A DNA stretch of 64,000 nucleotides from a virus (lineage: Duplodnaviria; Caudoviricetes). The DNA lies in the IMG/VR virus record IMGVR_UViG_2767802067_000003, positions 9,633 through 73,632 of that record. One strand, given 5' to 3'. The translations under genes were made by a program, and so were the position numbers. The notes beneath the pieces are model-generated. The model saw only the letters and a list, made by a program, of their open reading frames with translations. It did not search any database and was not told the DNA's origin. This document shows positions 2,282-61,269 of this stretch, piece after piece; position 1 is the first letter of the stretch, and the number at the start of each line of letters is the position of its first letter.

Positions 2282-2839
2282 ATGACCACCACGTACACCG
2301 GCAAGGTCGTCCTGGTCGAGCGCGTCAACCCGAGCGAGACGCACTCCTCGTACAACGACGGCCAGTACCTCATCTACGCCGAGACCGGCTCCCAGCTGTT
2401 CGGTCACCGCATGGACGGCTCCTACGGCGGCCTCGGCGTCTACGCCCTGAGCGGCCGCAGCGGTACCAGCGGCATTCCGCTGGCCGGTGAGGCCGCGTAT
2501 CGCGTCGTGGCCGTCGACAACGCGGAGCAGTGGATGCTCGACGCGCTGGACAGCGCCGACGAGGAGATCCGCGCCGTCCGCGCTGGTGAGCGGAAAGCCG
2601 ACTGGATCGGCGGTGTCTACGAGAGCGCGGAGAACCGCTCCCGCCAGCTCCGGAAGACGCTGGAGAAGGCCCTGGCCGAGCCCGAGCCCGAGCCCGGGGA
2701 GTCGGCGGGGTACGAGGACGAGCCGCTGGCAATGGAAGAGCACACCAGCACGGCCCTCTTCTTCGCGTCGGTCCCGCTGCCGCCCACCGTACGGATCACC
2801 GTCCCGGCCGGCGTCCAGGTCCTGGTCACCACCGAGTAG
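2282..2839 (+). CDS. Hypothetical protein
   Basis: 185 aa, GAAGGA RBS, GC3-rich. Confidence 0.7.
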   Translation: MTTTYTGKVVLVERVNPSETHSSYNDGQYLIYAETGSQLFGHRMDGSYGGLGVYALSGRSGTSGIPLAGEAAYRVVAVDNAEQWMLDALDSADEEIRAVRAGERKADWIGGVYESAENRSRQLRKTLEKALAEPEPEPGESAGYEDEPLAMEEHTSTALFFASVPLPPTVRITVPAGVQVLVTTE

Positions 2840-8424: not shown

Positions 8425-10002
8425 GTGGTCGACTTCGCCAATGCGCTGGCACTGGCCGCATCTCGCCTGGAAGGCCTGTCACAGGCGACGGATCGCTTCC
8501 CGACCCCCCACGACCTCGCGAAGGCGCTCGACCCGCGGGTAGTCACCACGCCCGCGCTGGCACTGCTCGACCGCCACCTCATGGACGTCGCGGCCGGAAA
8601 GACCCGGCGCCTGATCTGGACGATGCCCCCGCAGGAAGGCAAGTCGCAGCGCGTCAGCCGTACCTTCCCCGCCTGGCTTCTCGCCCGCAACCCCGACCTG
8701 CGGATCGCGATCGCCAGCTACGAGTTTGGCACCGCCCGCCGGTGGGGCCGCGCCATCCGCAACGACATCTCTGCCAACACAGACCTGTTCGGGCTGCGAG
8801 TGCGCCATGACACCGGTGCAGCCCACGAATGGCAGCTCGAGAACCATGACGGCGGCGTCTACTCCGTCGGCATCGCCGGCGCCCTGACCGGCCGCCCAGT
8901 CGACGTGCTGATCATCGACGACCCGATCAAGGGCCGCGCTGAGGCGGAGTCGCTGGTGCAGCGGGAGAAGGTCTGGGACTTCTGGGTCGACACCGCACGC
9001 ACGCGTTTCGGTCCCAATACCGCCGTCATCGTCGTCTTGACCCGCTGGCACGAAGATGACCTCGCCGGCCGGCTCTTGGAGGCAGACAAGGCGGTCGGGG
9101 AGTGGACCTACGTCAACATCCCGGCGCAGGCCGAGACCGCTGACGACCCGCTCGGCCGCGAGCCCGGCGAGTACCTGGTCTCCGCCCGCGGCCGCGGCGT
9201 CGCTGACTGGGAGTCCACTAAGCGGGACGTCGGCGCCCGTACCTGGACCTCGCTCTACCAGGGCCGCCCCGCGCCGGCCGAAGGCGGGCTGTTCCGCCGC
9301 GACCACTGGCGCTGGTACCAGGCCCCGAAGGCCGACCAGCGCGCCGATGGCTCGTACTGGATCCCGAACGCCACCGAGGTCATCCAGTCCTGGGACATGA
9401 CGTTCAAGGACAGCAAGAGCGGTGACTTCGTCGTCGGACAGGTCTGGGCGAAGATCAACGGCCAGGTCTACCTCATGGACCAGGTCTGCGACCGCCTCGA
9501 CTTCCCCGCCACCTGCCGCGCCGTCACCGCTCTTTCCAAGCGCTGGCCGCAGGCCCACGCGAAGTTGGTCGAAGACCGGGCGAACGGGCCTGCTGTCATC
9601 TCACAACTGCGCTCCACCGTGCCCGGGCTGATACCGGTCACCCCGAAGGAGTCCAAGTTCGCGCGCGCCTCCTCCGTCGCGCCGTTCGTGGAGAGCGGCG
9701 TCGTCTGGCTTCCGGCGCCCGAGATCGCCCCTTGGATCGGCTCCTTCCTCGAAGAGACCGCCGGCTTCCCGAACGCCTCGCACGACGACCAGGTCGACGC
9801 GATGACGCAGGCCCTGCACCGGCTCCTCGCCGGATCGAACAGCGCCGACCGCGCCATGGGCTGGCTCGACTCCTACACCTCGATCCCCCGACCCGCACCG
9901 GGAACCCCCCTGGACTACCTCGATGGGAGGGCACCGCATGGCCCGATGGCCCTTCCCCCGCAAGAAGACCCCGACCCCGACGCCCCAGATGACGGGCAGT
10001 GA
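8425..10002 (+). CDS. terL: Terminase large subunit
   Basis: MPPQEGKS Walker A, LIIDDPIK Walker B, QSWDMTFK and HDDQVDA nuclease motifs. Confidence 0.95.
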   Translation: MVDFANALALAASRLEGLSQATDRFPTPHDLAKALDPRVVTTPALALLDRHLMDVAAGKTRRLIWTMPPQEGKSQRVSRTFPAWLLARNPDLRIAIASYEFGTARRWGRAIRNDISANTDLFGLRVRHDTGAAHEWQLENHDGGVYSVGIAGALTGRPVDVLIIDDPIKGRAEAESLVQREKVWDFWVDTARTRFGPNTAVIVVLTRWHEDDLAGRLLEADKAVGEWTYVNIPAQAETADDPLGREPGEYLVSARGRGVADWESTKRDVGARTWTSLYQGRPAPAEGGLFRRDHWRWYQAPKADQRADGSYWIPNATEVIQSWDMTFKDSKSGDFVVGQVWAKINGQVYLMDQVCDRLDFPATCRAVTALSKRWPQAHAKLVEDRANGPAVISQLRSTVPGLIPVTPKESKFARASSVAPFVESGVVWLPAPEIAPWIGSFLEETAGFPNASHDDQVDAMTQALHRLLAGSNSADRAMGWLDSYTSIPRPAPGTPLDYLDGRAPHGPMALPPQEDPDPDAPDDGQ

Positions 10003-20058: not shown

Positions 20059-20517
20059 GTGGGAGTCTCCCTGAGCGGCGGCGACGAGCTGCGCCGCGCC
20101 CTGACCGGCATCGGCGTCCGCGCCCAGGCCGCGACCCCGCTCGCCGTCGCTGAAGCCGCCGCCCTGTTCGCACACTCCGTCGAACGGCAGTTGACCCGCA
20201 TGAGCCACGAGCGCGGGACACCGACGCCGTCCCGGCCTGGCGAACCACCCGCGATGGTTGTGCCCAGCACCAGCCGGTCGTTGCACAACTCCCTCACCGT
20301 CCTCGGCCCCACCAGGACCAGTCCCGGCGAGTGGCTTGCCGTGACCGGCCCGACAGCCGCGTACGCCCGCATCCAGGAACTCGGTGGCGTCACCGGCCGC
20401 GGGCACGCGACGACCCTGCCACCTCGCCCCTACATGCGCGCTGCATACGACGAGGTCGCCCACGACCCCGCGCTGCGCGCCGCCTTCATCCGAGCCTGGG
20501 GCGCGGCACTCACCTGA
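20059..20517 (+). CDS. HK97 gp10-like tail completion protein
   Basis: GEPPA....SL..S...YARIQELGG...TLPPRPYMR. Confidence 0.75.
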   Translation: MGVSLSGGDELRRALTGIGVRAQAATPLAVAEAAALFAHSVERQLTRMSHERGTPTPSRPGEPPAMVVPSTSRSLHNSLTVLGPTRTSPGEWLAVTGPTAAYARIQELGGVTGRGHATTLPPRPYMRAAYDEVAHDPALRAAFIRAWGAALT

Positions 20518-20542
20518 CCCTCCGAACACGAGGAGGTGCCAG

Positions 20543-23500
20543 GTGTCTGACTCTCTCCTCCCTCCGGTCACCGCCGAGTTCCTCGGCAACGTCGCCCCAC
20601 TGCTGTCCGCCATCGAGGCGGGCGTCGCCGCATTCGAGGACTTCGGCGCGTCGATACGAGCGATCGCCGCCCAGGTCGACCTCGTCTTCACGTCGGTGGG
20701 CGAGTCGGCCCGGGCCATGTCCGGCAGCCTGGCCGAGACCGGCGGCGTCACCGACGCGTCGTTGCAGGGCATCGCTGTCAGTGCCGAGGAGATGGCCGCC
20801 GCCGTCCAGACCAGCTCGGTGAAGGCCTCGACGTCGCTGTCAGCCGTCAGCGATTCCGCGCGGGCGATGGCCACCAGCGTCACCGAGAGCAGCACCGCTA
20901 CCGACACGTCGCTGCAGTCCATCGGCGCGAGCGCCGAGCGGATGGCCGTGTCTGTGCAGGCCGCGTCGGCAACGACCACCGAGTCCCTTACCGCCGTCGG
21001 TGCCGCCGCCCGCAACAGCGCGACGGCCACCGATGCCGCCTCCACCGCGTCCGCTGCTTCGGCCGGCGGCGCGATGGCCACCATCAACAACGTCGGCAAG
21101 GCCGTCACGGTCGCCGGCCTCGCCGGTGGCGCCGCGAGCGTCAAGATGGCCGCGGACTTCCAGAGCGCCACGATGGTCCTCGTCACCGCCGCTGGCGAGC
21201 AGGAAGCCAACCTCAACGCCGTCCGAGACGGCATCAAGAACATCGCCGCCGACACCGGTACCAGCTGGCACCAGGTGACCGAAGGCATGTACGAGGCCGA
21301 GAAGGCCGGCTACAAGTTCGCCAACGGCGGCCTGGACGTTGTCCGGGCCGCCGCGCAGGGCGCCCGTGAGGAAGGTGCCCCGCTGAACCAAGTCGTGGAC
21401 GCCATGACCACGACGATGAACGACTACAACATCCCGGCGTCGAAGTCCGTCCAGGTCATGAACGCCCTGAAGACGGGCGCTGGAGAGGCCAAGACCAACT
21501 TCGGGCTGTTCGCTTCCTCGCTGTCCACCGTGCTGCCGTCCGCGTATGCCGCGCACGTGTCCTTCGAGGATGTCGTCGGTGACCTCGCGTCGATGACGAC
21601 GAAGGGTGAGACCGCGCAGCACGCCGCGCAGCTCATGGCAGGCGCGATCCGTTCGCTCCAGTCACCGAACTCCACGACGTCCGCGACCCTCCAGCAGCTG
21701 GGCCTGTCAGCCACTCAGGTCGCGCAGGACATGGGCAGCAAGGGCCTGTCCGGCGTCATGAACGAGATCGTGGAGGCGATCGGGCGGCGCCTCGGTCCGT
21801 CCGGGCTCTACGCGGTCGGCGTGTTCAAGCAGTCTGCGTCGGCCGCGCAGGACGCCGCGAAGATGGTCTCGGCCATGCCGCCGGCCCTGCAGAAGCTCGC
21901 GCAGGCCTACGAGCAGGGCCAGATCTCCCAGAAGGAGTTCAAGCAGCAGGCCAAGGACCTGCCAGGCGCTCTCGCGGCGCAGGCCGAGCAGTTCCAGTCC
22001 TTGTGGGATAAGAGCCAGGGCTTCTCCGACCAGGTCAAGGCCGGTAACCCCGAGCTGACCACCTTCTCCGACCTGCTGCGCAAGGCAACCGGTGGCCAGT
22101 CCGGTCTTCAGACCGCGCTGATGCTGACCAGCGAGGACGGCAAGAAGACCAAGGAAAGCATCGAGGCCGTCAGCAAGTCGTTCAACGACGGCGGCCACGA
22201 GGTCGAGGGCTGGACCGCGACCAACGAGCAGATGACCGTCCAGATGGCCAAGCTCAAGCAGGGCCTCGAAGTCACGGCCATCAGCATCGGCGAGAAGCTG
22301 ATTCCGCCGATCTCCGCGATCCTCGGGTTCTTCCAGCAGAACTCGACAGCAGCCGGCGTCCTCGCCGACGTCGTGGCGGGCGGCCTGTCCGCCGCGTTCA
22401 CCGTCTTCGCCGTGAACAAGATCGCCGGGGTGGCCAAGGGCGTCCAAGGCCTGATCGGCGACATGGCGTCCGGTGCTCGAGCCGCCGCCCAGTTCGCGTC
22501 TGCGGTGGCGGGCGCTCAGGTCGGCGAGAACGCCGGAGGAGCGGCCCGGGCCGGCGCCGCGGTGCGCTCTGGGGCAACCGCGGTTGCCTCCACCGTCTCC
22601 AGCGGCACGCAGAAACTCGCGTCAGGCGTCGCCAGCGGCGGCCAGGCCGCCGCAGCATGGATCGGCACCGCCTCCCGCAACGCCGCGGACCTCGCTGTCA
22701 ACATCGGGCGGGCCACCGCGGCGGGCGCCGCATCCGCGTGGAGCGGCATGGTCCAGGGCGCAGCCGCCGTCGGCGGGGCGCTGAAGACAGCGGCCGTTGC
22801 CGCAGCTGAGTACGCGCTCAGAGCGGGCGAGGTCGCGCTTGCCTCAGCCCGTTCCGCGATCGCGTTCGTCGCGGAGAAGGTCGCCATGGTGGCCTCCACC
22901 GTCGCCGAGGGCGCGATGACGGCAGCCCAGTGGCTGCTGAACCTCGCGATGGACGCCAACCCGATCGGGCTGGTCGTCCTCGCCCTGGCCGCGATCGTGG
23001 GCGGTTTGATCTACGCCTACAACCACGTCACGTGGTTCCGCGTCGGAGTGCAGGCCGCCCTGAAGCTCGTCGTTGAGGCCTTCGACTGGCTCGTGTCGGG
23101 CGGTGAGCGTGCCATCGGCTATCTGGCCAGGCTGCCCGGGATGGTCGTCAGCTTCTTCTCTGGTGCTGGGTCCTGGCTGATCGACGCCGGAAAGAACCTG
23201 CTGATCGGCCTGTACAACGGCGTGATCTCGATGAGCGCCTGGCTCGCCTCGAAGCTCACGGGTCTCATCAAGGACATCGTCCCCGGACCGGTCCTGAGGG
23301 TCCTCGGGATCCACTCGCCGTCGCGGGTGTTCCACGAGATCGGAATGCACGTCGCCACGGGTCTTGCCAACGGCATCGTCGCCGGTAGCGACCCCGTCTC
23401 CGAGGCCGCCACGGGCCTGGCGCAGAACGTCATCACCAGCGCCCAGGGCATCACCACGGACGCCGTGCGCGTCACCGCCTCGGTCGCGGCTGCCGCCGGG

Positions 23501-23704
23501 CGGCCCGCTGGTCCGGTCGCCGTCGGCACCCTGCCATCGGGCACCTCAGCCGCCGGCGGAGGGCCGGTCCACGTCACCCATAACTGGAACATCACCGTGC
23601 AGGGCTCGGCCGTGACGACCAAGCAGCTCGCGGACGACATCGAGACGGAGTGGCTGCGCCGCGGTATGCGCAACTCCACCACCTACCCCGCCTACCGGCG
23701 CTGA
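20543..23704 (+). CDS. Tape measure protein
   Basis: 1053 aa, Ala-rich helical, MDANPIGLVVLALAAI and LGIHSPSRVF motifs; GTG after GGAGG. Confidence 0.92.
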   Translation: MSDSLLPPVTAEFLGNVAPLLSAIEAGVAAFEDFGASIRAIAAQVDLVFTSVGESARAMSGSLAETGGVTDASLQGIAVSAEEMAAAVQTSSVKASTSLSAVSDSARAMATSVTESSTATDTSLQSIGASAERMAVSVQAASATTTESLTAVGAAARNSATATDAASTASAASAGGAMATINNVGKAVTVAGLAGGAASVKMAADFQSATMVLVTAAGEQEANLNAVRDGIKNIAADTGTSWHQVTEGMYEAEKAGYKFANGGLDVVRAAAQGAREEGAPLNQVVDAMTTTMNDYNIPASKSVQVMNALKTGAGEAKTNFGLFASSLSTVLPSAYAAHVSFEDVVGDLASMTTKGETAQHAAQLMAGAIRSLQSPNSTTSATLQQLGLSATQVAQDMGSKGLSGVMNEIVEAIGRRLGPSGLYAVGVFKQSASAAQDAAKMVSAMPPALQKLAQAYEQGQISQKEFKQQAKDLPGALAAQAEQFQSLWDKSQGFSDQVKAGNPELTTFSDLLRKATGGQSGLQTALMLTSEDGKKTKESIEAVSKSFNDGGHEVEGWTATNEQMTVQMAKLKQGLEVTAISIGEKLIPPISAILGFFQQNSTAAGVLADVVAGGLSAAFTVFAVNKIAGVAKGVQGLIGDMASGARAAAQFASAVAGAQVGENAGGAARAGAAVRSGATAVASTVSSGTQKLASGVASGGQAAAAWIGTASRNAADLAVNIGRATAAGAASAWSGMVQGAAAVGGALKTAAVAAAEYALRAGEVALASARSAIAFVAEKVAMVASTVAEGAMTAAQWLLNLAMDANPIGLVVLALAAIVGGLIYAYNHVTWFRVGVQAALKLVVEAFDWLVSGGERAIGYLARLPGMVVSFFSGAGSWLIDAGKNLLIGLYNGVISMSAWLASKLTGLIKDIVPGPVLRVLGIHSPSRVFHEIGMHVATGLANGIVAGSDPVSEAATGLAQNVITSAQGITTDAVRVTASVAAAAGRPAGPVAVGTLPSGTSAAGGGPVHVTHNWNITVQGSAVTTKQLADDIETEWLRRGMRNSTTYPAYRR

Positions 23705-30604: not shown

Positions 30605-30945
30605 GCAACCTGACCAGCTTCAATGAGCGCCTGGCCGTCCTCGTCACCCGCGGGTTCGGCACGATGTGGGCCTTCTACGCCTTCACCATGTACGGCCTGC
30701 TGCCACTGCTGCTCCCCGCCGCGCAGGACCGCCTCCTGTACTGGTCCAACGTCATCCAGCTGGTGGCCCTGCCGCTGCTGATGGTCGGCCAGACCGTGCT
30801 CGGCCGCGCCGCAGAGCGCCAGGCCGGAGAGACCCACGACGCGGTCATGGAGGAGCTGTCTCTTCTGCGGCAGGCCCACGACGAGCTCAAGCAGATCGTC
30901 ACCGCCGCGCCCAAGGATCCGGCACCGGCAGGGGAGGCACTCTGA
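30601..30945 (+). CDS. DUF1003-like membrane protein, holin candidate
   Basis: RLAVLVT..FGTMWAFYAF...VIQLVALPLLMVGQ; directly before the endolysin. Confidence 0.65.
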   Translation: MSNLTSFNERLAVLVTRGFGTMWAFYAFTMYGLLPLLLPAAQDRLLYWSNVIQLVALPLLMVGQTVLGRAAERQAGETHDAVMEELSLLRQAHDELKQIVTAAPKDPAPAGEAL

Positions 30946-32672
30946 TGCCCAACGCTCGAGGCTACGACGTCTCTGACTACCAGGATTCGATCCCCGCCGA
31001 CGCCGAGTTCGCCATCATCAAGGCAACCGAAGGCGCGCACACCGACCAGCAGGGCTACCGGGCCAAGCTCGCCGACGCGCGCGGCCGCAGCCTCGTCATC
31101 GGCCACTACCACTTCTTCCACGCCGAAAACGACGTCCAGGGCGAGGTCGACCACTTCTGCGCGGTCGTCGGGGACATCCCGTCCGGTGAGTTCCTGGCTC
31201 TCGACTTCGAACCGTACGGCCAGGATGTCGACGACACCACGGCCACCGACCGTAAGAACCAGTGGCTCGCACAGGTGAAGGCCCGTTACCCAGGGCACCA
31301 GGTCGGCCTGTACGCCAACCTCGACTGGTGGCACCGCACCGACGACGAGTGCGGCGACTTCCTGTGGATCGCCGACTACGACTCCCCGCCCGGCGCCCCA
31401 GCCGTCCAACATCCGTGGGCGTTCCACCAGACCACTGACGCCCCGATCGACACGAACCTCTACAACGGCACGGTCGACCAACTGCATGCCTGGGCCGGCG
31501 TGCCCACGCCGACACCGCCAGCCCCCGCCCCGGACCCCGCGTCCCAGCCGGACACGACCCCCACTGAGGCCCCGCCCTCGAGCCCCACTCCGCAGTGGAA
31601 GCAGCTCCTGGACCACGTCGCATCCATCCCCGAGCAGATCTACGAGGGCTGGAACCCCAACGGAGGCTACGACAACCACACGCCGTTCGGGACGGAGTAC
31701 GGGGAGGACGGCGTCTCGTGGTGCGTCGAGTACTGCTGGGACATGTACCACGACACCGGCCTCGACTCGGCCGTGCCGAAGACCGACAACGTCACCGCCT
31801 TCTCCGACTGGGCCAAGCAGCACGGCCAGTGGTCGCTCTACCCGTCCATCGGAGCATGGGTCAACCTCGGCGACGGCCAGCACTGCGAGATCGTCACCGG
31901 TTGGGACGGCGACACCGTCTACACCAAGGGCGGCAACAGCATCGAGGCTGGCTCCCAGGACAGCGGGCAGGGCAACGGGGTGTGGTCGCACGCAACGCCA
32001 CGCCGAGCGGCCCGCGTCACCGGGTACTTCGCCCCAACGTTCCCGGACCACATTGCCCCGCCCACCGCAGACCCGCAGGACTACCGCGGCGGACCCGCCG
32101 TCGACTCCTTCAACGTCCCCAGCGCACAGCTCACACCTGCTCCCGCCCCGACGCCGACCCCCGCCCGCTACCAGGTCACCATCGCTGGCCTCCGGTACGG
32201 CTACGGCGCCGTCGGTGATCAGGTCACTGTTGTCGGACGAGCCCTGGTCGCTGCCGGGCACGGCACCCACTACCAGGTTGGTCCCGGCCCGGCGTGGGGC
32301 GACGCGGACACCCTGAACTACCAGGATTACCAGCTCAGCATCGGACTGCAGGGGACCGCCCCGCACCAGGACGCCGACGGCGTCCCGGGCCCGGAATCGC
32401 TGCGCCGACTTCTCGGCTACCTCCCCGGAGAGGTGCCGCCGTTCCCTGGCCGGCAGGCCTTCGCGGACGGCCAGTCCAACCAGTACGTGCTGATGCTCGG
32501 TGAGCAGCTGGTCCGCAAGGGCTACGGCAGCCACTACCGCATCGGCCCGTCCCCGGCCTGGAGCGAGGCCGACCGGCTCAACGTCGCCGACTTCCAGCAC
32601 GCCCAGGGCTGGAACGGCTCGAGCGCCGACGGCTACCCCGGCCCCGAGACCTGGCGCCTCTTGTTCACCTGA
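30945..32672 (+). CDS. Endolysin: GH25 muramidase + CHAP + two peptidoglycan-binding domains
   Basis: GYDVSDYQ...IIKATEG...GHYHF, LALDFE, LWIADY; SWCVEY...HCEIV..KGGN; two ..GP..W...ADG.PGPE repeats. Confidence 0.9.
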   Translation: MPNARGYDVSDYQDSIPADAEFAIIKATEGAHTDQQGYRAKLADARGRSLVIGHYHFFHAENDVQGEVDHFCAVVGDIPSGEFLALDFEPYGQDVDDTTATDRKNQWLAQVKARYPGHQVGLYANLDWWHRTDDECGDFLWIADYDSPPGAPAVQHPWAFHQTTDAPIDTNLYNGTVDQLHAWAGVPTPTPPAPAPDPASQPDTTPTEAPPSSPTPQWKQLLDHVASIPEQIYEGWNPNGGYDNHTPFGTEYGEDGVSWCVEYCWDMYHDTGLDSAVPKTDNVTAFSDWAKQHGQWSLYPSIGAWVNLGDGQHCEIVTGWDGDTVYTKGGNSIEAGSQDSGQGNGVWSHATPRRAARVTGYFAPTFPDHIAPPTADPQDYRGGPAVDSFNVPSAQLTPAPAPTPTPARYQVTIAGLRYGYGAVGDQVTVVGRALVAAGHGTHYQVGPGPAWGDADTLNYQDYQLSIGLQGTAPHQDADGVPGPESLRRLLGYLPGEVPPFPGRQAFADGQSNQYVLMLGEQLVRKGYGSHYRIGPSPAWSEADRLNVADFQHAQGWNGSSADGYPGPETWRLLFT

Positions 32673-42640: not shown

Positions 42641-43203
42641 CCGGCGCCGCCGACGAAGCCGAGCAGAAGCTGCGGCACTGGGTGGACACGTACGCCCAAC
42701 TCCACTCCGGTGACGAGAGCTGGCGCTTCCGTAGTTTTGCCGCGCTCGTTGCCGCCTTCGGAGTCCTCTACCACCCTGCCCCCTGGCCGGCGGATCAGCC
42801 CCGGGGGCGGCTGGGCCGCTGCTTCGAGGAGGCCAGCAAGTACGCCGACGCCACCGGCGCCACGTACGTCGAGGGGTTCGTCCTGGTCCCGGACGCCCCG
42901 CTGATGTTCCCGGTCTTCGAACACGCCTGGTGTCTGACACCTCAGGGCACCGTGGCCGACACGACCATCCCCGATGGCGGCGCCGTCCTCTACCTCGGCC
43001 TGCCGCTGCACGCCGCGTTCCGCCGCACCGCCCAGGCCCGGCGACGGACCTGGGCGGTGCTCACCTACGACACGGACAATCTCCTAGCCGGCGTCAACGA
43101 CGTAGTCCTGAAAGCTGGCCTGCCACCGGGCGCACTGGCCCTTCCGAACACACCTTCACCGCCCCCTGGTGGGCCTGGCCCCGTCGTACAGGAGGTTCCG
43201 TGA
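42637..43203 (+). CDS. Papain/transglutaminase-like Cys-His-Asp protein, paralog 2
   Basis: RCFEEA...YVEGFV...EHAWCL...VADTT..YLGLPL. Confidence 0.7.
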   Translation: MTGAADEAEQKLRHWVDTYAQLHSGDESWRFRSFAALVAAFGVLYHPAPWPADQPRGRLGRCFEEASKYADATGATYVEGFVLVPDAPLMFPVFEHAWCLTPQGTVADTTIPDGGAVLYLGLPLHAAFRRTAQARRRTWAVLTYDTDNLLAGVNDVVLKAGLPPGALALPNTPSPPPGGPGPVVQEVP

Positions 43204-44543
43204 CCACCCTCGATCAGTCAACTCCCGCCGAGGTCGTCGACGCCGAACTGCTGGACGACGACGAGCAAGCCCTTCCCGCAGTACGCGAGCCCCTGGGCTT
43301 GGACCTCAGCGACTTCACCCGGGACACCGTGCTGGTCGCCGGGCGGCCGATCCCGGCCGCCTTCGTCGCGCCGCAGTACTCCGCCGCGGACTACGTCATC
43401 TCCGAGGACGTCGCCGAGCTGATCGAGGCGGCCCGGCCGGAGAACACCGAACGCAACCGGCGCAGCCAGATCGGCCTGTTCCAGCGCTGGTGCGACGACC
43501 GCGGCCGGGTCGCCCTGCCGTGCACCACCGCGACGCTGATCGAGTACATCGGCGGTCTCATCCAGCGCGGCCTCGACCCGGACACCATCGCGGCCCACAA
43601 GAGCACGGTCGTCACCTGGCAGGAGGAGGAGACCCCGGGCAACACCCGGCCCGGAACCCGGCAGGTCTCTGCGATGATCGCGGCGTACCGGGCCAGGTGG
43701 AGCCGCACCAAGACCGACAAGCAGTCACCGGCGATCCGCGAGGTCGACCTGGAGCTGATGGTCGCGGTCTGCGACGAATCCGGTCGGCCTGCCGACCTGC
43801 GCGACGCGGCCATCGCCTGCCTGGGCTTCCACCTGCTCACCCGTCGGATCGAGTTGGCCAGCCTGCTCGTCACCCACGTCACGCTGGAGCGCGATGGCAT
43901 GCACGTGCGGCTGGTGGACCGCAAGACCCACAAGGACGGCACGGTCTTCGAGGCTTGGATCCCGGCCCGGGACGACGCCCCCCATATCTGCCCCGTCCGC
44001 CGGGTGCGGGCCTGGCTGGAGTACGGCCGCCTGATCCACCAGCCGCAGGACCAGGCGCTCTTCCGGGCGTTGGACAAGGCCGGCCGCCTGGCCGTGCGCC
44101 TCACCCCGCAGACCCGACCCAAGCACCCCGACGGCACCGACAAGCAGGACCGCGAGCTCACCGCAGAGGACTGGACGCGGCTGTCGATGCTCTCCGGCGA
44201 GGCCATCAACAAGTTCGTCAAGGCCCTCGCCAGGAAGGCGTACGCCAAGATCGCACACCTCACCGAGGAGCAGCGCGTCGGGCTCGGCCACAACGCGCTG
44301 CTCAACGAACAGACCGCCTCCTCCGTCACCTCGCACGGCCTGCGGGCCGGCGGGGCAACCGAGCTGTACGAGTCGGACGTGCCGGAGGACGTTATCGCGA
44401 TGCTCGGTGACTGGGCCAAGGGGTCCGCGGCGATGAAGCGCTACTTCCGGAAGATCCGGACCAGCGGTGAGAACGCCTGGGCGGTCGCCCGGCAGGCCCG
44501 GGAGAGGATGCGGCTCGCGGCGAGCCAGACGGTCGTCGCGTAG
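43200..44543 (+). CDS. Cre-like tyrosine recombinase
   Basis: Cre-type N-domain (FQRWC...ALP.....IEYI..L.QRGL.PDTI); catalytic R (LLTRRIEL), K (RKTHK), HGLR, W (LGDW), Y (MKRYFR). Confidence 0.92.
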   Translation: MTTLDQSTPAEVVDAELLDDDEQALPAVREPLGLDLSDFTRDTVLVAGRPIPAAFVAPQYSAADYVISEDVAELIEAARPENTERNRRSQIGLFQRWCDDRGRVALPCTTATLIEYIGGLIQRGLDPDTIAAHKSTVVTWQEEETPGNTRPGTRQVSAMIAAYRARWSRTKTDKQSPAIREVDLELMVAVCDESGRPADLRDAAIACLGFHLLTRRIELASLLVTHVTLERDGMHVRLVDRKTHKDGTVFEAWIPARDDAPHICPVRRVRAWLEYGRLIHQPQDQALFRALDKAGRLAVRLTPQTRPKHPDGTDKQDRELTAEDWTRLSMLSGEAINKFVKALARKAYAKIAHLTEEQRVGLGHNALLNEQTASSVTSHGLRAGGATELYESDVPEDVIAMLGDWAKGSAAMKRYFRKIRTSGENAWAVARQARERMRLAASQTVVA

Positions 44544-47800: not shown

Positions 47801-47826
47801 TATTCAATTGCGCGCGCATTCGAATA
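47801..47826. promoter_or_regulatory. 26-bp pseudo-palindromic operator 1, overlapping -35 TTGCGC (47808) of a promoter with -10 TAGCGT (47831)
   Basis: TATTCAATTGCGCGCGCATTCGAATA; 17-nt spacing between hexamers. Confidence 0.7.
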
Positions 47827-47864: not shown

Positions 47865-47890
47865 TACTTAGATGCGCGCGCAATTGAATA
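47865..47890. promoter_or_regulatory. Operator 2 (inverted copy)
   Basis: 47872-47890 is the exact 19-bp reverse complement of 47801-47819. Confidence 0.7.
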
Positions 47891-53084: not shown

Positions 53085-54377
53085 ATGGTGCCTTACCACG
53101 CCCCTGTTCGCCAATCCACCGAGAATGCAAGCGCGTCGAAGTCCACCCGGAAGTGGTCGCCTGCCCGGACTGAGACCATCACCGGCACCACGTCCCGGCG
53201 GACTACCCCGGCCCGGTGGTGGCGCGACGTTCAGATCGCCTACCAGGCCGGACTCATCCCCGGGGCGACAGCCACCACGCTGACTGTCGCTCAGGACCTC
53301 GTTCCCCGCATGGACTGGACCACTGGTCGGGTCCGCTACTGCTGGGCCGGTGTGATGAACCGCACAGGCCTATCCCGGACCGCCGTCGCCACCCACATCC
53401 GCCACCTACGCGCCGCCGGCTGGCTTGCCTGGGCCGAGCACGGCAGCCACTTCAACTCCAAGCGGGCCCGCGGCCAGGAGGGATACGCAGCGACGGCGAC
53501 GGTGTACGCCGCCGTGGTCCCTCCACTGTTCGACCAGCACGTCGGAAACCGGATCGAGGGCACGGGGTACACCGCCCGGGTCATCGGGGTGACCGAGCGG
53601 GGCCGCCAGGAGCGCATCGACCGGGTTCAGCAGGACGCGGCGGCAAAGGCGTCGCGTACCCCTTCCTTGAGGGTGGTTAAGGAAGAGGGTCAGGTTCAGG
53701 TAAGTGATGGGTTTTCAACTACCACGCACGCGCGGCCGACGAAAAGCAAGCCCCGGAGGACGATTCTCGGAGCAACGGTCACCCGGGCCATGGCCGACCG
53801 CGCCGAGCGGGCTGCCCGGTACATCCGGCCACTGGTGACCTGGTGCCAGACTGCGAGCCTTCGGCAGCTGTCATGGACACTGCTCGACCTGGTCGCCCGA
53901 GGCTGGGACGAGATCCGCATCCTGGTGTGGGTCCGCGAGCAGGCGAAGACCGCTCGCGGAGGGGTGATCTGGCGGCCCGACCGGCCGCACCGCTACCTGG
54001 CCGCGTGTCTTCACCTGGAGCGCATCCTGGAGGCGGAAGCAGCCCAGCGCGCTGCCGAAGCCGAGAACCGCGCCGCTCCGGACACCAACCCGGAGTGGAT
54101 GGCCTGGCTCGACACCCGGTCTGCGGCGGCCAAGGTGCCCCCACCGGACATTCAGCCGGAACCGGACCTGACAGTTGACGGGCTCACCCTGGAGGAGATC
54201 AACGACCTGCGCACCCAGGCCCGGGGAGAACTCGCAGCAGGCCGAGGGGAACTGGTGCGGGTCATGGTCGAGGCCCACGGTCTGGACGTCGCCCGCCGAC
54301 TGCTCGGTCAGGTCGTAGACCCGGCACTACGCCTCTCCTGGGTGTCCCGGCGGACCCGACTGGCGGTGGTGGCATGA
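53085..54377 (+). CDS. HTH replication initiator (plasmid-type Rep, putative)
   Basis: RMDWTTGRVRY....MNRTGLSRTAVATHIRHLRAAGWLAW.EHGS...ATATVYAAVVP; AAGGAGG RBS; coupled to DciA. Confidence 0.7.
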   Translation: MVPYHAPVRQSTENASASKSTRKWSPARTETITGTTSRRTTPARWWRDVQIAYQAGLIPGATATTLTVAQDLVPRMDWTTGRVRYCWAGVMNRTGLSRTAVATHIRHLRAAGWLAWAEHGSHFNSKRARGQEGYAATATVYAAVVPPLFDQHVGNRIEGTGYTARVIGVTERGRQERIDRVQQDAAAKASRTPSLRVVKEEGQVQVSDGFSTTTHARPTKSKPRRTILGATVTRAMADRAERAARYIRPLVTWCQTASLRQLSWTLLDLVARGWDEIRILVWVREQAKTARGGVIWRPDRPHRYLAACLHLERILEAEAAQRAAEAENRAAPDTNPEWMAWLDTRSAAAKVPPPDIQPEPDLTVDGLTLEEINDLRTQARGELAAGRGELVRVMVEAHGLDVARRLLGQVVDPALRLSWVSRRTRLAVVA

Positions 54378-55153
54378 GGGACCACGCGCCGGTCGGACCC
54401 GACCTTGCCCGGATAGCACTCGCCCAGGCCCGGGAAGCCGCTCGGCAGCGAACATTCGCACCCAAGCGAGCCGAGCCCAAGACGCCGAAAAGGGCGGCTG
54501 CCCACTCCGGAGGCCGTGAGCCAGCGGCCTTCGCCGCAGTGCTCGAGCGCCTGGTGGAGGAGGCAGGCTGGAAGCGCGGCGCCTCCGCCGGCAGCATCCT
54601 CGACCAGTGGCCCGGGCTCGTCGGTCCGGACCGCGCGAAGAACTGGCGCGCTGTCGGGTACGACCCGAGCGCCAAAGTCCTGACCATCAGCGCAACGAGC
54701 GCAGCCTGGTCCACGGCGCTGCGCTTGGAGCAGGCCCGTCTCCTCGCGCTCCTGGAGCAACGGTTCCCCGGGACCGTCGGCAGCATCCGGGTGCGCACCG
54801 GCACTACCCACCCGGCAGAGCCCGAGCCGGTCGACCAGCACCGGCCTGTGTCCGCGGGGCGCCCAACGCTCAAGGGCTGGAGCGGGCAGCCGCCCGGGGT
54901 TGAGTACTGCGCTGTGCGACAGCAGCTGCGTACCGCGAAGAACAGCCCCGAGGACAGCGAGGCGGTCAATCCGTTCCTGCCCGTGGGGTACGGCCGGCTG
55001 GGACGCGAACCGGAGGACCGGTTCCTGCCCGGCCGCGATCTGGCCCGTGCTGTGGCCGAAGCCCAGCAGTTCTCCTCTGCTCGGCGCTCGCTCGAATCCC
55101 ACTACCGCGCACTTGCCACCGCACGTCAGCAACGAAGGGAGCAACCAACGTGA
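54374..55153 (+). CDS. dciA: DciA (DUF721) helicase-loader family protein
   Basis: DLARIAL..AREAAR...REP...LV...GW...ILDQWP.LVG...VLTISATSAAWSTALRL. Confidence 0.8.
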   Translation: MRDHAPVGPDLARIALAQAREAARQRTFAPKRAEPKTPKRAAAHSGGREPAAFAAVLERLVEEAGWKRGASAGSILDQWPGLVGPDRAKNWRAVGYDPSAKVLTISATSAAWSTALRLEQARLLALLEQRFPGTVGSIRVRTGTTHPAEPEPVDQHRPVSAGRPTLKGWSGQPPGVEYCAVRQQLRTAKNSPEDSEAVNPFLPVGYGRLGREPEDRFLPGRDLARAVAEAQQFSSARRSLESHYRALATARQQRREQPT

Positions 55154-55938: not shown

Positions 55939-56319
55939 ATGTCCCCGAGTGCCGCGTTGACCGACGACGTACCCGAGCATCGGTCACCCCGTCTCGCTCC
56001 CGTGGTGAACCTCGCGTCCTGGCAGGCCCGGTCGGCGTCCGCCGCTGCCGCCGATGAGGCAGTCTCCCAAGCACGCGAACACTGGACCAGGGTTCTCACC
56101 ACAGCCGGTCTGAGCTGGTCAGCTCCCAGCTCGGTGAGCCAGGTCGTCACCGTCGTCGCCGAAGAACTGGAACGCCTCGTCGGCGGCCTGCACGCGATAC
56201 GCGAAGGCGGCGGGCCTCTCGGCTTGCCCCCCAACCCCGACGCCGGTCTCGACCTCACCGGCGCCCTGGCGGTCCTGGAACTGCTGAAGGACCTCGAGGA
56301 CGTGGCCAAGGCCCGCTAG
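55939..56319 (+). CDS. Hypothetical protein
   Basis: GGAG RBS; 126 aa. Confidence 0.55.
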   Translation: MSPSAALTDDVPEHRSPRLAPVVNLASWQARSASAAAADEAVSQAREHWTRVLTTAGLSWSAPSSVSQVVTVVAEELERLVGGLHAIREGGGPLGLPPNPDAGLDLTGALAVLELLKDLEDVAKAR

Positions 56320-57344
56320 TCCAGGTGCTGCTCCCGGCTGGTAGCCCACCAGTAGATGACCTGATCGCGGGTCGGGACCGTCTGGAACTCACCGAGCTCG
56401 GCGAGTCTCCGTCGGAGCGCGCCCAGTGCCTGCTTGACTCGGCTCACCGAGACGGACAACTCCCGCGCGATGACCTCGTAGGTGCGGCCGGCGACCAGTG
56501 AGCGCAGGATCGACCGTTCCTGCTGCGTGGTCACCGGCCCGGTCCCCTGGTCGTCGCTGCGGTCGGCCTGCCATGGCTCGGCGCGGTCCCAGGCGAGATT
56601 GAAGACCTCGACGATGAACGCCACCATCGCCGGGGCGGTCACGATCCAGGCCGGCGCCGAGCCCTTCTCCGGCGGCGTGTGGAAGCTGGGGATGAACGCG
56701 GTGGACTCATCGATGACGATGAGGCGGGTAAATGGCGCGGCCAGCAGGCGGACCTGGGCGCCGAGGCCGGTCATGTAGTCCACCCACTCCCGGGTAGCGG
56801 TCCCGTCCGATCCCGGGGCGATCGCGCTGGAGTGGTAGAGCGTGCGCATGGCGACGCCGCGGCGGATCGCCTTGCTGTCCCGTTCCCAGGAGTACGCCAG
56901 CTTCTTCGGGGAGCGGGCCCCGCCGGGCTGTGCGGTCAGAAGGCTATGGCTGGCGCCCTCGATCTTCTCATCAATGGCGTAGTTCACGTTGCAGCCGTAG
57001 ACGTACTCGATGCCGTTGGTCGAGGTGCAGCCTTCCCTGGACAGGCTCCCCATGAGGATGTGGAGACCGCGAACCTTGTCCAAGGTCTCCTGCAGGGTGT
57101 CCAGGGCCGTGGCCGTCGCGCGACGTTCGAACACCTCCAGCGGTACTGCGGTGTACCGACCTGGCTCGACGCTCGCCGGCACCAGCAGGCCCAGTGTGAG
57201 CAGAAGGTCCAGGTATGGGCTGTCGTCCGGGATGCGCTCGTGGCGAAGGGCGCGCTGCCAGAGGACAAGCGCAGGTCGCGGCAAGGCGCCTGACGTCAGG
57301 GCAGCCGCTGCGGCCGCCGCTTTGTCCGATTCTTCAGTATTCAA
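56316..57344 (-). CDS. TrmB/PLD-like sensor domain + C-terminal LuxR-type HTH regulator
   Basis: GVAMRTLYHSS...VRLL..PFTRLIVIDESTAFIP...F..AWDRA..W; TTQQERSILRSLVAGRTYEVIARELSVS; TTG start after GAAGG. Confidence 0.85.
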   Translation of the reverse strand: MNTEESDKAAAAAAALTSGALPRPALVLWQRALRHERIPDDSPYLDLLLTLGLLVPASVEPGRYTAVPLEVFERRATATALDTLQETLDKVRGLHILMGSLSREGCTSTNGIEYVYGCNVNYAIDEKIEGASHSLLTAQPGGARSPKKLAYSWERDSKAIRRGVAMRTLYHSSAIAPGSDGTATREWVDYMTGLGAQVRLLAAPFTRLIVIDESTAFIPSFHTPPEKGSAPAWIVTAPAMVAFIVEVFNLAWDRAEPWQADRSDDQGTGPVTTQQERSILRSLVAGRTYEVIARELSVSVSRVKQALGALRRRLAELGEFQTVPTRDQVIYWWATSREQHLD

Positions 57345-57501
57345 CGATGTACCTTCGGACACCGGACGGACGTGCACCAACGCTCCCCTTGATCGGCATA
57401 TGCGGTCAGGGCGAACCTTAGTGCGGATGATCATCCAATTGCACTCAAACCAACGGCCTAGTACCGGCCACCGAATCCCATCCACCGATCCGAGAGACCC
57501 G

Positions 57502-57759
57502 ATGTACCTCACAACCAACCTCCGCCGCGCCGCCGTAGCCGTCCTGCTGCCCGTCCTGGCAGCCCTCGCCCTGTACAGCACCTACGCCACCACCCGAGCC
57601 AGCGCAGCCGACTCCACCTGGGGCCACGGTGACCAGGACACCGCGGTCGTCGCGGACTCCACCTGGGGCGTGATCGCGCCACCTCCGGTTGGCGATCAGA
57701 CCGGTCGGACCGGCCAGGACCAGAACCCGGACACCCCGGACGACTCCACCTGGGGCTGA
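57502..57759 (+). CDS. Secreted peptide precursor with three DSTWG repeats
   Basis: Sec signal (RR + hydrophobic core + ASA); DSTWG at 57610, 57655 and 57742 (the last ends at the stop codon). Confidence 0.8.
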   Translation: MYLTTNLRRAAVAVLLPVLAALALYSTYATTRASAADSTWGHGDQDTAVVADSTWGVIAPPPVGDQTGRTGQDQNPDTPDDSTWG

Positions 57760-57840
57760 ACTGATTCGTGGGCTGAGCTCGTCTGAGGGCTCGAGCCCAG
57801 AGTGCGGGGGCGGGTGCCAATAAACGGGGGGAACAGAGAA

Positions 57841-58368
57841 ATGCGCCACCAGCAGGCCCGGACGAACGCTGCTCACCGGGTCGCAGAAGACAACCACTGG
57901 ATCACAGCCGGCTCTACGAGGGCGGGCGCGGTGGTGACAGGGGACCGGCCCGCGGCCGGCCCAGAGGTTCCGCTGAACCTGCGCGTGTATGAGGTCGCCG
58001 AGCTTCTTGACCGTGAGCTGGCGGAGTTCGCGCAGCGCCACGCCTCCGGACCTGCCCCGATCGGGCGCAAGAACTTGGCGGCGTACGCCTACTCCATCGC
58101 CCAGCAGGCCGACGCCAGCGCCCGAAGCGAGTACGAAGTGCTGCAGATGGCCTCGAACCTTCGCGCCGCGATGGAGACCGGGGATGCCGACCAGGCGGTG
58201 GGGAAGCTCACCTGCCCCGGTTGCCTCTGCTGGTCACTGATCAGCGCGCGCATCCGCGGCCAGTGGCACTGCGTCTGCCTCAACCTGCGGTGTGCACCGA
58301 CTCCTGACGCGCCGCGCAGCTGGGCGCTCGCGGACGTCGCCCGGCACAACCTCGGCGCAGCCTCGTGA
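57841..58368 (+). CDS. Zn-binding hypothetical protein
   Basis: CPGCLCWSL...CLNLRC...LADVARH. Confidence 0.7.
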   Translation: MRHQQARTNAAHRVAEDNHWITAGSTRAGAVVTGDRPAAGPEVPLNLRVYEVAELLDRELAEFAQRHASGPAPIGRKNLAAYAYSIAQQADASARSEYEVLQMASNLRAAMETGDADQAVGKLTCPGCLCWSLISARIRGQWHCVCLNLRCAPTPDAPRSWALADVARHNLGAAS

Positions 58369-58646
58369 CCGCCCGGACGAGGCCGGCCTGCCCGACCCGT
58401 CGTTACCTGTCTGGTCGGCCCCGAGATCTGGTCACGTGGGCGCAGGCCGCTGAGGCCATCGCGCAGTCGCCTCATCCGATGTCGGAGCGCAACCTGCGTC
58501 GGCTGTACCGGATGTACGGAGGGTGCGTGTACCGGCTGGTCGGCGTCCGCGGTGAGCTGGTGAGCAGGACCGCGGTGTTCGAGTGGCACCGCAACTACTG
58601 GAGAGGCTGGTCGCAGGCCCCGGCGCGACCCCCCGCGCGCCGTTAG
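58365..58646 (+). CDS. Small HTH (excisionase-like) protein
   Basis: DLVTWAQAAEAIA...MSERNLRRL. Confidence 0.55.
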   Translation: MTARTRPACPTRRYLSGRPRDLVTWAQAAEAIAQSPHPMSERNLRRLYRMYGGCVYRLVGVRGELVSRTAVFEWHRNYWRGWSQAPARPPARR

Positions 58647-58656
58647 TAGATCCGCG

Positions 58657-58700
58657 CACGAATGCCCTGGACAGGCCACCTGACCAGGGCATTCGTGTTT
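58657..58700 (+). terminator. Hairpin terminator
   Basis: 14-bp stem CACGAATGCCCTGG/CCAGGGCATTCGTG then TTT. Confidence 0.7.
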
Positions 58701-58712
58701 CCGCCACCCCTC

Positions 58713-58748
58713 TACTCAATTGCGCGCGCATTTGAGCAGAGCTAGGAT
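58713..58748 (+). promoter_or_regulatory. Operator 3 overlapping promoter TTGCGC-17-TAGGAT
   Basis: TACTCAATTGCGCGCGCAT is 18/19 identical to operator 1; -35 at 58720, -10 at 58743. Confidence 0.75.
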
Positions 58749-58837
58749 TGGTAGTGCCGAAAAGGACTCGTTGCGGGGCCCTTCGACATGCGCCGTCGAG
58801 GGCCCCGCAACGGCACACCAATCCCCGCGGAGCCCCC

Positions 58838-59230
58838 GTGAGCACTGTCCGTGATCCACCCATGCCCCAAACCGGCCGCAGCCCAGGATGCCGCCGCGTG
58901 CCGTGGGACACCCTCGACGCCGAGCAACAGCACCTCGTCACAACGGTCCTGGACCTTCTAGGAACCGCCAACGGCCTCACCGAGGACGAAGCCCCCGTCA
59001 CCGCGCCGCCGGCCAGGGCCACGCTCAGCACGCTGGCGGCCGCCGTCGCCGGTCTCACCGTCACCTCCGGAGCAGAGCTCGCCCAGTGCTACGACTGCAC
59101 CGACCTGGTCGACGGATACGACACCAACGTGACCAACGGCGGAGTCATCATCTGCGACGACTGCCACCACCTCCGGAACGCCGCCGACCCGGACTTCTGG
59201 AGGCCCGATACCACCCGCTACGACGACTGA
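58838..59230 (+). CDS. Hypothetical protein with CxxC...CxxC
   Basis: CYDC...ICDDC; GGAG RBS. Confidence 0.55.
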   Translation: MSTVRDPPMPQTGRSPGCRRVPWDTLDAEQQHLVTTVLDLLGTANGLTEDEAPVTAPPARATLSTLAAAVAGLTVTSGAELAQCYDCTDLVDGYDTNVTNGGVIICDDCHHLRNAADPDFWRPDTTRYDD

Positions 59231-59372: not shown

Positions 59373-59912
59373 TTGCTTGAACAATCCGCGGCCGACCCCG
59401 CGAGCCGTCCTCTCTTCGAGTGCACGGTCTTCGGCACGCCCGCCCCCCAGGGCAGCAAGTCACCGAAGGGCCTTCGACGTACCAAGAAGGGCAACCTGGT
59501 CTCGAACCTGGTCGAGTCAAGCAAGCTGGTCGGTCCCTGGCGCGACGCCGTCAAGGCCGCCGCGATCCGGACCAGACTTGCCCTACCGACCTGGCGAACC
59601 CTGGACGGTCCCCTCGTCGCGGAGATGCACTTCACCCTCCCCCGCCCCAAGAGCGCCCCCGCCTCGCGCACCCGCCCCGACCGCTACCCCGACCTCAGTA
59701 AGCTCGTTCGCTCAACCGAAGACGCCCTGACATCCGCTCAGATCTGGCGCGACGACGCCCGCGTGGTCGAGTACGAGGCTCTGGCCAAGCACTACGTCGG
59801 CAGCAAGGACCCCCGCGCCCTGGCACGACCCGGCGTGATCATCCGTATCTGGAGTCCACGTGACCCGCACCACCAACCTGCTTGCCGCGACGCATCTGCG
59901 GCATCTCACTGA
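59373..59912 (+). CDS. rusA: RusA Holliday junction resolvase
   Basis: GTPAPQGSK...WR..V...PDLSKLVRSTEDAL...DDARVV. Confidence 0.9.
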   Translation: MLEQSAADPASRPLFECTVFGTPAPQGSKSPKGLRRTKKGNLVSNLVESSKLVGPWRDAVKAAAIRTRLALPTWRTLDGPLVAEMHFTLPRPKSAPASRTRPDRYPDLSKLVRSTEDALTSAQIWRDDARVVEYEALAKHYVGSKDPRALARPGVIIRIWSPRDPHHQPACRDASAASH

Positions 59913-60735: not shown

Positions 60736-60747
60736 GGAGCCGCCCCC

Positions 60748-61269
60748 GTGGCTGGAGAAACGCTCATAACCCTGACCGGCAACCTTGTCGACGACCCCGA
60801 GCTGCGCTTCACCCCCTCGGGGGCTGCGGTCGCGAAGTTCCGGATCGCCTCCACCCCCCGCACCTTCGACCGCCAGACCAACGAATGGCAGGACGGCGAG
60901 AGCCTCTTCCTCACCTGCAACGTCTGGCGCCAGTCGGCCGAGAACGTGGCCGAGTCCCTGCAGCGCGGTATGCGCGTCATCGTTCAGGGCTTCCTCAAGC
61001 AGCGCTCCTACGAGACCAAGGAAGGCGAGAAGCGCAGCGTCTTCGAAGTCGAGGTCCAGGACGTCGGGCCCTCTTTGCGAGGTGCGACGGCCAAGGTGAC
61101 GCGCTCGCAGCGATCCGAGCGCAGCAGCACGAACGGGTGGCAGCAGAGCCGCGGCGGTGGGGAAAGCCGGGGCCCGTCGCAGCCCAACCCGTGGACCACA
61201 CAGGGGCCAGTGGGCGATCCGTGGGGCAGCGACACGCAGGGCGGCCTCAACGAGGAGCCACCGTTCTGA
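60748..61269 (+). CDS. ssb: Single-stranded DNA-binding protein
   Basis: [38 protein letters not shown]...EEPPF. Confidence 0.97.

Follow-up and report, generated by a model that had tools for sequence, protein, structure and literature searches.

A stretch of 64,000 nucleotides of tailed-phage DNA (hereafter the window; G000:C13:89832-153831, guanine-cytosine (GC) content 69%), whose host is a Kitasatospora-like actinomycete with a genome of 8.78 Mb in 253 contigs, carries two divergent genes. One encodes a small, predicted secreted propeptide with three copies of the pentapeptide DSTWG, and the other encodes a regulator with TrmB-like, PLD-like and LuxR-type parts. From comparisons of sequences and predicted folds, we propose with moderate confidence that the pair belongs to a family of propeptide/cytoplasmic-receptor signalling systems, distinct from the RRNPP systems, that has been captured by mobile elements. 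A preliminary description of the locus had suggested peptide communication through a non-RRNPP receptor; what it observed is confirmed, and what it concluded is supported in part.

The propeptide gene (Table 1) specifies 85 amino acids. Its predicted signal peptide has arginines at positions 8 and 9 in the n-region, a 16-residue hydrophobic core (A10-Y25) and a c-region ending ...TRASAA, such that the first DSTWG sits right behind the predicted signal-peptidase site. The same DNA, GACTCCACCTGGGGC, encodes all three DSTWG copies, and the sequence on either side of each copy is unrelated. The Sec signal, the three repeats with identical DNA and the last copy that ends at the stop codon of the open reading frame (ORF) had been reported at the outset, and translation and direct reading of the sequence bear them out. 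DSTWG occurs seven times in a six-frame translation of the entire host genome, and three of these occurrences lie inside the propeptide ORF, whose GC content at third codon positions (GC3) of 0.87 is usual for coding sequence in this genome. Searches of Pfam, NCBIfam, PHROGs and PADLOC found no family for the propeptide, and its matches in the ESM Atlas are solely to unnamed actinobacterial 'secreted protein' clusters. The propeptides are predicted to be disordered, with an Atlas predicted local distance difference test (pLDDT) value of 0.49.

The regulator has a composite architecture. Specifically, a profile of 35 regulator homologs matches TrmBL2 (5bpd; E 1.1e-12) over positions 16-249 and the helix-turn-helix (HTH) domains of NarL (1je8; E 1.4e-8) and GerE (1fse) over positions 252-322. 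Similarly, an AlphaFold2 (AF2) model of the protein (pLDDT 82.6) gives TrmBL2 (5bpd; E 5e-13) and TrmB (3qph; E 7.5e-9) as the top Foldseek matches, followed by PLD-fold proteins, including Nuc (1byr). These searches agree with the PLD-like sensor and LuxR HTH first described for the divergent partner. They also uphold its separation from the RRNPP proteins, as neither the profile nor the fold searches of the regulator found a tetratricopeptide repeat (TPR) domain. The match to Pfam Regulator_TrmB (E 0.016) is under the cut-off, no Pfam family reaches its curated cut-off, and NCBIfam, PHROGs and PADLOC offer no family above theirs. A reading through the regulator sequence found no H-x-K-x4-D catalytic motif. 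The N-terminal TrmB-like domain is the most variable part of the protein across the family. The regulator is a candidate cytoplasmic peptide receptor and transcription factor, with the PLD-like domain as the candidate site of ligand binding. The 157-bp gap between the two genes that was given previously holds if the regulator begins at the TTG codon at 57344, whereas the GTG start at 57377 of the public gene calls leaves 124 bp.

Regulators of this type are widespread in the bacterial family to which the host belongs. Each of the 167 genomes of the genus contains 4-12 matches at about 35% identity, and the regulator profile also matches all 10 genomes of a second Streptomycetaceae genus, which we took as Streptomyces. 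The family is thereby present in 177 of the 177 Streptomycetaceae genomes searched, and it is sporadic in other Actinomycetota. A library of representatives at 50% identity contains 2,034 regulator clusters with E values of 1e-30 or better. When the flanks of 29 regulator loci were scanned for repeated pentamers, small ORFs were found that carry DSGWN, DSAWN, DWHWG, DWEWQ, DSTWD, DSAWT, DWGWG, DSVWQ, DTIWN or DSTWG, and the remaining loci mostly have one C-terminal copy of a motif. After 60 loci were added, a fixed filter was applied that called for a start codon, a basic n-region, a hydrophobic window and a tail of D-x-x-W-x plus 0-2 residues, no more than 700 bp from the regulator. A partner ORF passing this filter is found beside 55 of the 70 near-full-length regulators scored, in convergent orientation at 41 loci and divergent at 14. 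Wherever a propeptide has several motif copies, the first lies directly behind an A-x-A-type site, and the C-terminal copy is the position kept in every family member. At 18 regulator loci outside Streptomycetaceae (L109-L126, with L116 from the unpublished genome G392, which bears on this negative alone), the filter detects no adjacent ORF ending in x-x-x-W-x.

A genome-wide control indicates how selective this filter is. Only 8 of the 111,603 six-frame segments of the host genome pass. Four of these are found no further than 1.5 kb from one of the 12 regulator paralogs, whose surroundings cover 0.55% of the genome, against an expectation of about 0.04. The host therefore carries three cassettes of its own on the chromosome (Table 1). 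The NDTSWGG end of one of them equals DSTWG with S and T exchanged. Because most of the sampled family members are chromosomal, the cassette is best viewed as a general Streptomycetaceae system captured by mobile elements and not as an invention of the phage. Two observations concern the surroundings of the cassette on contig C4. It lies directly downstream of a gene that by eye resembles dnaJ (the HPD motif of a J-domain), and a second paralogous regulator is found about 1 kb away, with an ORF in between that weakly resembles nucleoside deoxyribosyltransferases (Pfam E 1.9e-5, below the cut-off).

The peptide motif and the regulator vary together. In a quick maximum-likelihood tree of 70 regulators, the window protein groups with a close relative from Kitasatospora sp. 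NPDC085464 and then with the copies on mobile elements (SH-aLRT support 94; a tentative position, given the long branches). Next come groups of divergent chromosomal cassettes, whereas all convergent cassettes fall into a single clade (SH-aLRT 98), in which every subclade has a motif of its own. Alignments within a regulator clade reveal an invariant pentapeptide amid variable spacers, such that the motif is the sole invariant block of the mature region, and the motif differs among clades (DSAWT, DSNWT, DTIWN, DHSWT, DIGWA, DLHW[GSN] and DVIWT). Among pairs of regulators whose LuxR HTH domains are 0.9-1.0 identical, those with the same motif have identities of 0.94 in the sensor domain and 0.86 in the N-terminal domain, whereas those with different motifs have identities of 0.73 and 0.57. 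This is the pattern expected of a receptor tracking its ligand, and it is suggestive rather than stronger because kinship is only partly controlled. The claim that a phage carries a cognate pair of repeat peptide and regulator fares well, as the pairing recurs at dozens of independent loci where the pentapeptide alone is conserved in the mature region and shifts with the regulator clade. One well-supported subclade, composed of 344-residue regulators (L018, L044, L093, L096 and relatives), is without a neighbouring D-x-x-W-x ORF and may have a different partner or no partner at all.

The nearest relative of the window cassette reveals which parts of the propeptide are retained. A word-index search of a collection of 5.8 billion proteins returned only one propeptide homolog, the 92-residue P0003 of NPDC085464, which resides in a syntenic element (DciA ... 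regulator/peptide ... RusA, SSB, ParA, ParB); the wider family came to light solely through the scans beside regulator paralogs. The two regulators are 95% identical and the two propeptides 74%. All three DSTWG motifs are kept in the homolog, with a synonymous GAC to GAT change in copy 1, while the spacers differ by three in-frame indels and the residue preceding motif 3 changes from D to N. Because the motifs persist while the spacers change, selection is confined to the signal peptide and the five DSTWG residues. The hexapeptides (xDSTWG) envisaged originally are consequently not indicated, since the residue before DSTWG varies among A, D and N and is not conserved.

Related cassettes also reside on another phage and on plasmids. 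The cassette DNA has no nucleotide-level match among plasmids and phages, and its relatives there were found by protein search alone, with the regulator matching Streptomyces phage Chymera and 81 plasmid records. In Chymera, gp30 (59 amino acids, two copies of DPGWG) is divergent from gp29, beside the integrase and the immunity repressor. The divergent cassette is likewise present at six of the nine Streptomyces plasmid loci examined, with propeptides annotated as small 'hypothetical' coding sequences. These are pSAM1 of S. ambofaciens (three copies of DTAWG) and plasmids of S. europaeiscabiei (DTAWG, two), S. chartreusis (DTTWG, two), S. janthinus (DTTWG, three), Streptomyces sp. MBT27 (DSAWG, two) and Streptomyces sp. 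NBC_01278 (DSAWG, two); an intact peptide gene was not found at the other three loci. Every motif on a mobile element has the form D-x-x-W-G, and plasmids of similar size (about 90 kb) differ in motif, as is the case with the pherotypes of arbitrium. At two of the loci without an intact gene, on the S. melanogenes and NBC_00060 plasmids (L034 and L136), the divergent upstream ORF (2277-2576, minus strand, in L034) ends in ...RRDSAWGC without a signal peptide; it may represent a propeptide gene that has decayed or is mis-framed. A gene for a DUF4344 metallopeptidase is found downstream of the regulator.

The region between the two genes contains candidate control elements (Table 1). The NPDC085464 element has this region at about 90% identity and retains the palindrome GGATGATCATCC. 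Of 22 divergent cassettes, 9 have TTGATC on the peptide strand in the 250 nucleotides that precede the peptide start, usually at -78 to -117, compared with 0.056 occurrences expected per region. A scan of 56000-59000 for sigma-70 and terminator consensus sequences gave no match.

If these parts work together as we propose, the small gene would yield a propeptide that is exported by the Sec pathway. Signal peptidase would expose the first DSTWG, and extracellular proteases would free DSTWG pentapeptides, three per precursor, including the invariant C-terminal one. This peptide of about 564 Da would build up as the cells that carry the element become denser and would be taken up by an oligopeptide permease of the host, whose genome has at least seven genes for family-5 oligopeptide-binding proteins (nine matches, of which two share an open frame). 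Inside the cell, the target of the peptide would be the N-terminal and PLD-like portion of the neighbouring TrmB-like regulator, and binding would alter the action of the LuxR-type HTH at the divergent promoter region, with TTGATC and GGATGATCATCC as candidate sites. As a result, the peptide gene and the two co-directional genes that follow it, one of them with a fold weakly like those of Xis and MerR proteins, would be expressed at a different level. For the phage, such a circuit would amount to a private channel for sensing density, comparable to arbitrium but made from unrelated parts.

Several points weigh against this proposal. There is no dedicated protease, exporter or importer inside the cassette. 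The known members of the TrmB family sense sugars or act as chromatin proteins; none is known as a peptide receptor. No partner peptide is detectable for 15 of the 70 sampled paralogs. Shared ancestry alone also yields co-diversification of two linked genes. Finally, the cassette is dispensable for this phage backbone, since two related elements described below have the flanking genes without it.

If the two genes are linked, must their products meet? The regulator might only control transcription of its neighbour, while the secreted D-x-x-W-x product never binds it and has an extracellular function, for instance in adhesion or metal binding, as an antimicrobial or a morphogen, or as the ligand of a membrane sensor encoded elsewhere. 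We regard this alternative as possible and rather unlikely. It draws on the frequent adjacency of regulators and their targets, on the predicted export and disorder of the peptides, and on the fact that import is an assumption of the signalling proposal. However, a repeated unit of five residues at both ends of the mature chain suits a processed small ligand over a folded effector, and neither the window nor the sampled loci link a membrane sensor to the cassette. Furthermore, the divergence of the N-terminal and sensor domains with the motif, in regulators whose HTH domains are more than 90% identical, is hard to explain without contact between regulator and peptide.

Alternatively, the cassette might be a peptide-signalling accessory of the moron type, which manipulates or eavesdrops on the D-x-x-W-x circuits of the host and is not concerned with phage lysis-lysogeny. 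Related elements speak to this idea. Relatives of orf175, a gene downstream of the peptide gene, occur in just 2 of the 166 other genomes of the genus. These loci, L129 (G156:C2:63090-66512) and L130 (G082:C36:18775-22158), keep homologs of orf175, orf93 and orf160, and L129 also has an orf137-like homolog. The regulator-peptide cassette is absent from both, with a different small gene at the site in L129. Because both elements retain the early genes around the site but not the cassette, the cassette is an accessory insert and not a core switch of this phage lineage, which leaves the control of lysis-lysogeny suggested at first unsupported. Such an insert would fit a moron, as would the three host chromosomal cassettes, one with the NDTSWGG end, and the predominance of chromosomal members in the sampled family. 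Yet identity between the phage regulator and its paralogs in the host is only about 30%, the Chymera cassette abuts the integrase and immunity repressor, and the window cassette heads a unit with a weakly Xis-like gene. On these grounds we judge a role confined to host circuits to be improbable.

The small ORF might instead be the precursor of a ribosomally synthesized and post-translationally modified peptide (RiPP) with three cores, whose modifying enzymes are encoded elsewhere. RiPP precursors with multiple cores exist, and the tryptophan-containing repeats are reminiscent of tryptophan-crosslinked RiPPs. However, the precursor begins with a Sec-type signal instead of a cytoplasmic leader. 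The scanned neighbours are phage replication and recombination genes, with no radical S-adenosylmethionine, P450, YcaO, lanthipeptide or other tailoring enzyme among them, and the regulator is the sole constant partner over about 60 loci. This option, which the preliminary description had kept as its alternative, thus loses most of its appeal, and we consider it very unlikely. Lastly, the notion that the propeptide ORF is not a gene, or that its repeats are an artefact of chance or recent duplication, is effectively refuted by the recurrence of the family (dozens of paralogous cassettes, many annotated as coding sequences in RefSeq plasmids and in phage Chymera), by the genome-wide control, by the GC3 value and by the NPDC085464 homolog, which holds its frame across three indels, even though the identical repeat DNA consists of codons that a high-GC genome prefers and by itself is therefore weak evidence of selection.

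The proposed signalling system resembles arbitrium (AimR-AimP-AimX) of Bacillus SPbeta-like phages in that it is phage-borne, has a short propeptide with a predicted Sec signal and a conserved, element-specific C-terminal oligopeptide next to a gene for a cytoplasmic DNA-binding protein, and has different 'pherotypes' in related elements (here DSTWG, DTAWG, DTTWG, DSAWG and DPGWG). The parts themselves are different. AimR has an HTH and a TPR (RRNPP) fold, whereas the regulator here joins a TrmB-like winged helix, a PLD-like domain and a LuxR HTH. The genes aimR, aimP and aimX are co-directional and those in the window are divergent, with protein-coding ORFs downstream and no AimX-like output identified. 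Further differences are the two to three copies of the peptide, the Actinomycetota hosts and the mostly chromosomal membership of the family. More broadly, RRNPP systems (Rap-Phr, NprR-NprX, PlcR-PapR, PrgX and Rgg-SHP) share with these cassettes the co-diversification of peptide and receptor and the spread on plasmids and phages, but their receptors are non-homologous, and the D-x-x-W-x pentapeptide signature is new. One account (PMC10075063) gives RRNPP systems as confined to Firmicutes.

The regulator can also be compared with proteins that share some of its domains. Archaeal TrmB and TrmBL2 likewise have an N-terminal winged helix, a long (coiled-coil) helix and a PLD-like effector domain. 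Unlike them, the window protein is bacterial, has no C-terminal sugar-binding barrel, carries a LuxR/GerE HTH and is encoded beside a secreted-peptide gene; there are no sugar genes near it, the neighbours being phage genes. LuxR-type receptors and LuxR solos similarly use a C-terminal GerE/LuxR HTH as the output of a one-component ligand sensor. In the regulator, the HTH is the only LuxR part that is matched, the autoinducer-binding domain PF03472 is not, and the candidate ligand is a ribosomal peptide and not an acyl-homoserine lactone. Gamma-butyrolactone systems of the ArpA/ScbR type mediate cell-cell signalling in the same organisms and place the receptor gene next to the signal-producing gene. 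These systems rely on a small molecule made by an AfsA-type enzyme and on a TetR-family receptor, neither of which is present here. Our literature search, which did not cover subscription-only papers, found no paper on these peptides, on this regulator subfamily or on cell-to-cell signalling by peptides in Actinomycetota.

Table 1. Positions of the cassette, its flanking elements and other features of the window, with the chromosomal cassettes of the host given by contig
Feature	Position	Strand	Basis or remark
Propeptide gene, 85 amino acids plus stop	57502..57759	+	translation; GC3 0.87; 92-residue homolog P0003 74% identical
Predicted Sec signal peptide, residues 1-36 (...TRASA-A)	57502..57609	+	heuristic reading of n-, h- and c-regions
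DSTWG copy 1, D37-G41, at predicted mature N-terminus	57610..57624	+	
DSTWG copy 2, D52-G56	57655..57669	+	
DSTWG copy 3, D81-G85, stop codon directly after	57742..57756	+	
Regulator gene, 353 amino acids from GTG 57377 (343 from alternative TTG 57344)	56316..57377	-	public gene call P0004
TrmB-like winged helix and long helix, residues ~14-115	57033..57338	-	AF2 secondary structure, TrmBL2 profile, domain identities
PLD-like alpha/beta domain, residues ~120-272	56562..57020	-	Foldseek 5bpd, 3qph, Nuc 1byr; weak Pfam Regulator_TrmB
LuxR/GerE-type HTH, C-terminal, residues ~284-345	56343..56528	-	Pfam GerE E 8e-4, below cut-off; NarL 1je8 and GerE 1fse profiles
Divergent intergenic region, GC 58% (genome 73%)	57378..57501		candidate promoter/operator elements
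TTGATC	57389-57394		read from sequence
Imperfect palindrome TGATCGGCATATGCGGTCA	57390-57408		read from sequence
Perfect palindrome GGATGATCATCC	57425-57436		read from sequence
orf175/188, Cys-rich C-terminus, 188 amino acids (175 from start 57841)	57802..58368	+	
orf93, 93 amino acids, small winged-helix fold	58365..58646	+	AF2 pLDDT 75.7
GC-rich hairpin GAATGCCCTGG...CCAGGGCATTC behind orf93 stop codon	58660-58694		read from sequence
23-bp operator-like sequence TAYTCAATTGCGCGCGCATTYGA, three copies	47801-47823, 47865-47887, 58713-58735		
Large terminase	8425-10002		
Portal	9923-12583		
Tape measure	20384-23704		
Endolysin	30666-32672		
Tyrosine integrase	42930-44543		
DciA	54374-55153		
RusA	59373-59912		
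SSB	60736-61269		
ParA and ParB	at contig end		
Host chromosomal cassette, end NDTSWGG	C2:429507-429704	-	
Host chromosomal cassette, end DDISWQ	C4:113522-113680	-	
Host chromosomal cassette, end GDWRWE	C46:90688-90915	+	

Downstream of the propeptide gene, orf175/188 probably shares its transcription unit, and orf93 follows. The Foldseek matches of orf93 are all weak (RdfS 8dgl, E 0.07; Pukovnik Xis 4j2n; BldC 6amk), and its modelled fold weakly resembles excisionases and MerR-like proteins. Directly past the hairpin that closes the peptide-orf175-orf93 unit lies the third copy of TAYTCAATTGCGCGCGCATTYGA.

The window as a whole has the content of a tailed-phage genome. In addition to the phage genes listed in Table 1, RNase H-like, Sak4-like and exonuclease genes are encoded there. 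The regulator is among the few minus-strand genes of an otherwise plus-strand early region. Ten tRNA genes (Met, Tyr, His, three Leu, two Ser, Trp and Gln) are packed at 331-1181, with spacings of 1-50 nucleotides; tRNA arrays are a typical trait of large phage genomes. All 10-kb bins of the 154-kb contig C13 have a GC content of 0.68-0.725, below the genome average of 0.7305, and for this reason C13 in its entirety may be a phage-plasmid and not a prophage integrated in the chromosome. The genes parA and parB lie at the end of C13, and the NPDC085464 contig likewise breaks right behind parB. A role in anti-phage defence was considered and rejected, as PADLOC gave only one weak HTH match (E 0.0026).

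Communication among Streptomyces and their relatives has been ascribed to butyrolactones and other small molecules. To our knowledge, signalling by ribosomal peptides with an intracellular receptor has been described for Firmicutes and their phages alone, and we know of no identification of the oligopeptide whose role as a signal the bldK phenotype implies. The BldK permease is reported to import an unidentified peptide of 655 Da (PMC9640686), and the D-x-x-W-x penta- and hexapeptides, at about 560-760 Da, fall in the same size range. We therefore raise, as a speculative and doubtful extension, the prospect that D-x-x-W-x cassettes represent the first peptide quorum sensing in Actinomycetota, with a new class of receptor (TrmB-like, PLD-like, LuxR). 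The chromosomal copies would then provide species-specific 'pherotype' signals in the development of Streptomycetaceae, which could include the BldK oligopeptide, and phages and plasmids would set the time of lysogeny or transfer through D-x-x-W-G channels of their own, or would listen to the host.

The family is carried by an isolated temperate phage and by replicons of phage-plasmid size as well as by the window element. If the cassette is a peptide-receptor system, it would offer a candidate open to direct test, since peptides of five residues can be synthesized at low cost. Should our proposal be true, TrmB-like PLD domains would gain a new class of ligand, and the cassettes would offer orthogonal peptide-inducible switches for the engineering of actinomycetes. 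It would also mean that phage-to-phage peptide communication has an origin separate from that of arbitrium and relies on a receptor of unrelated fold.

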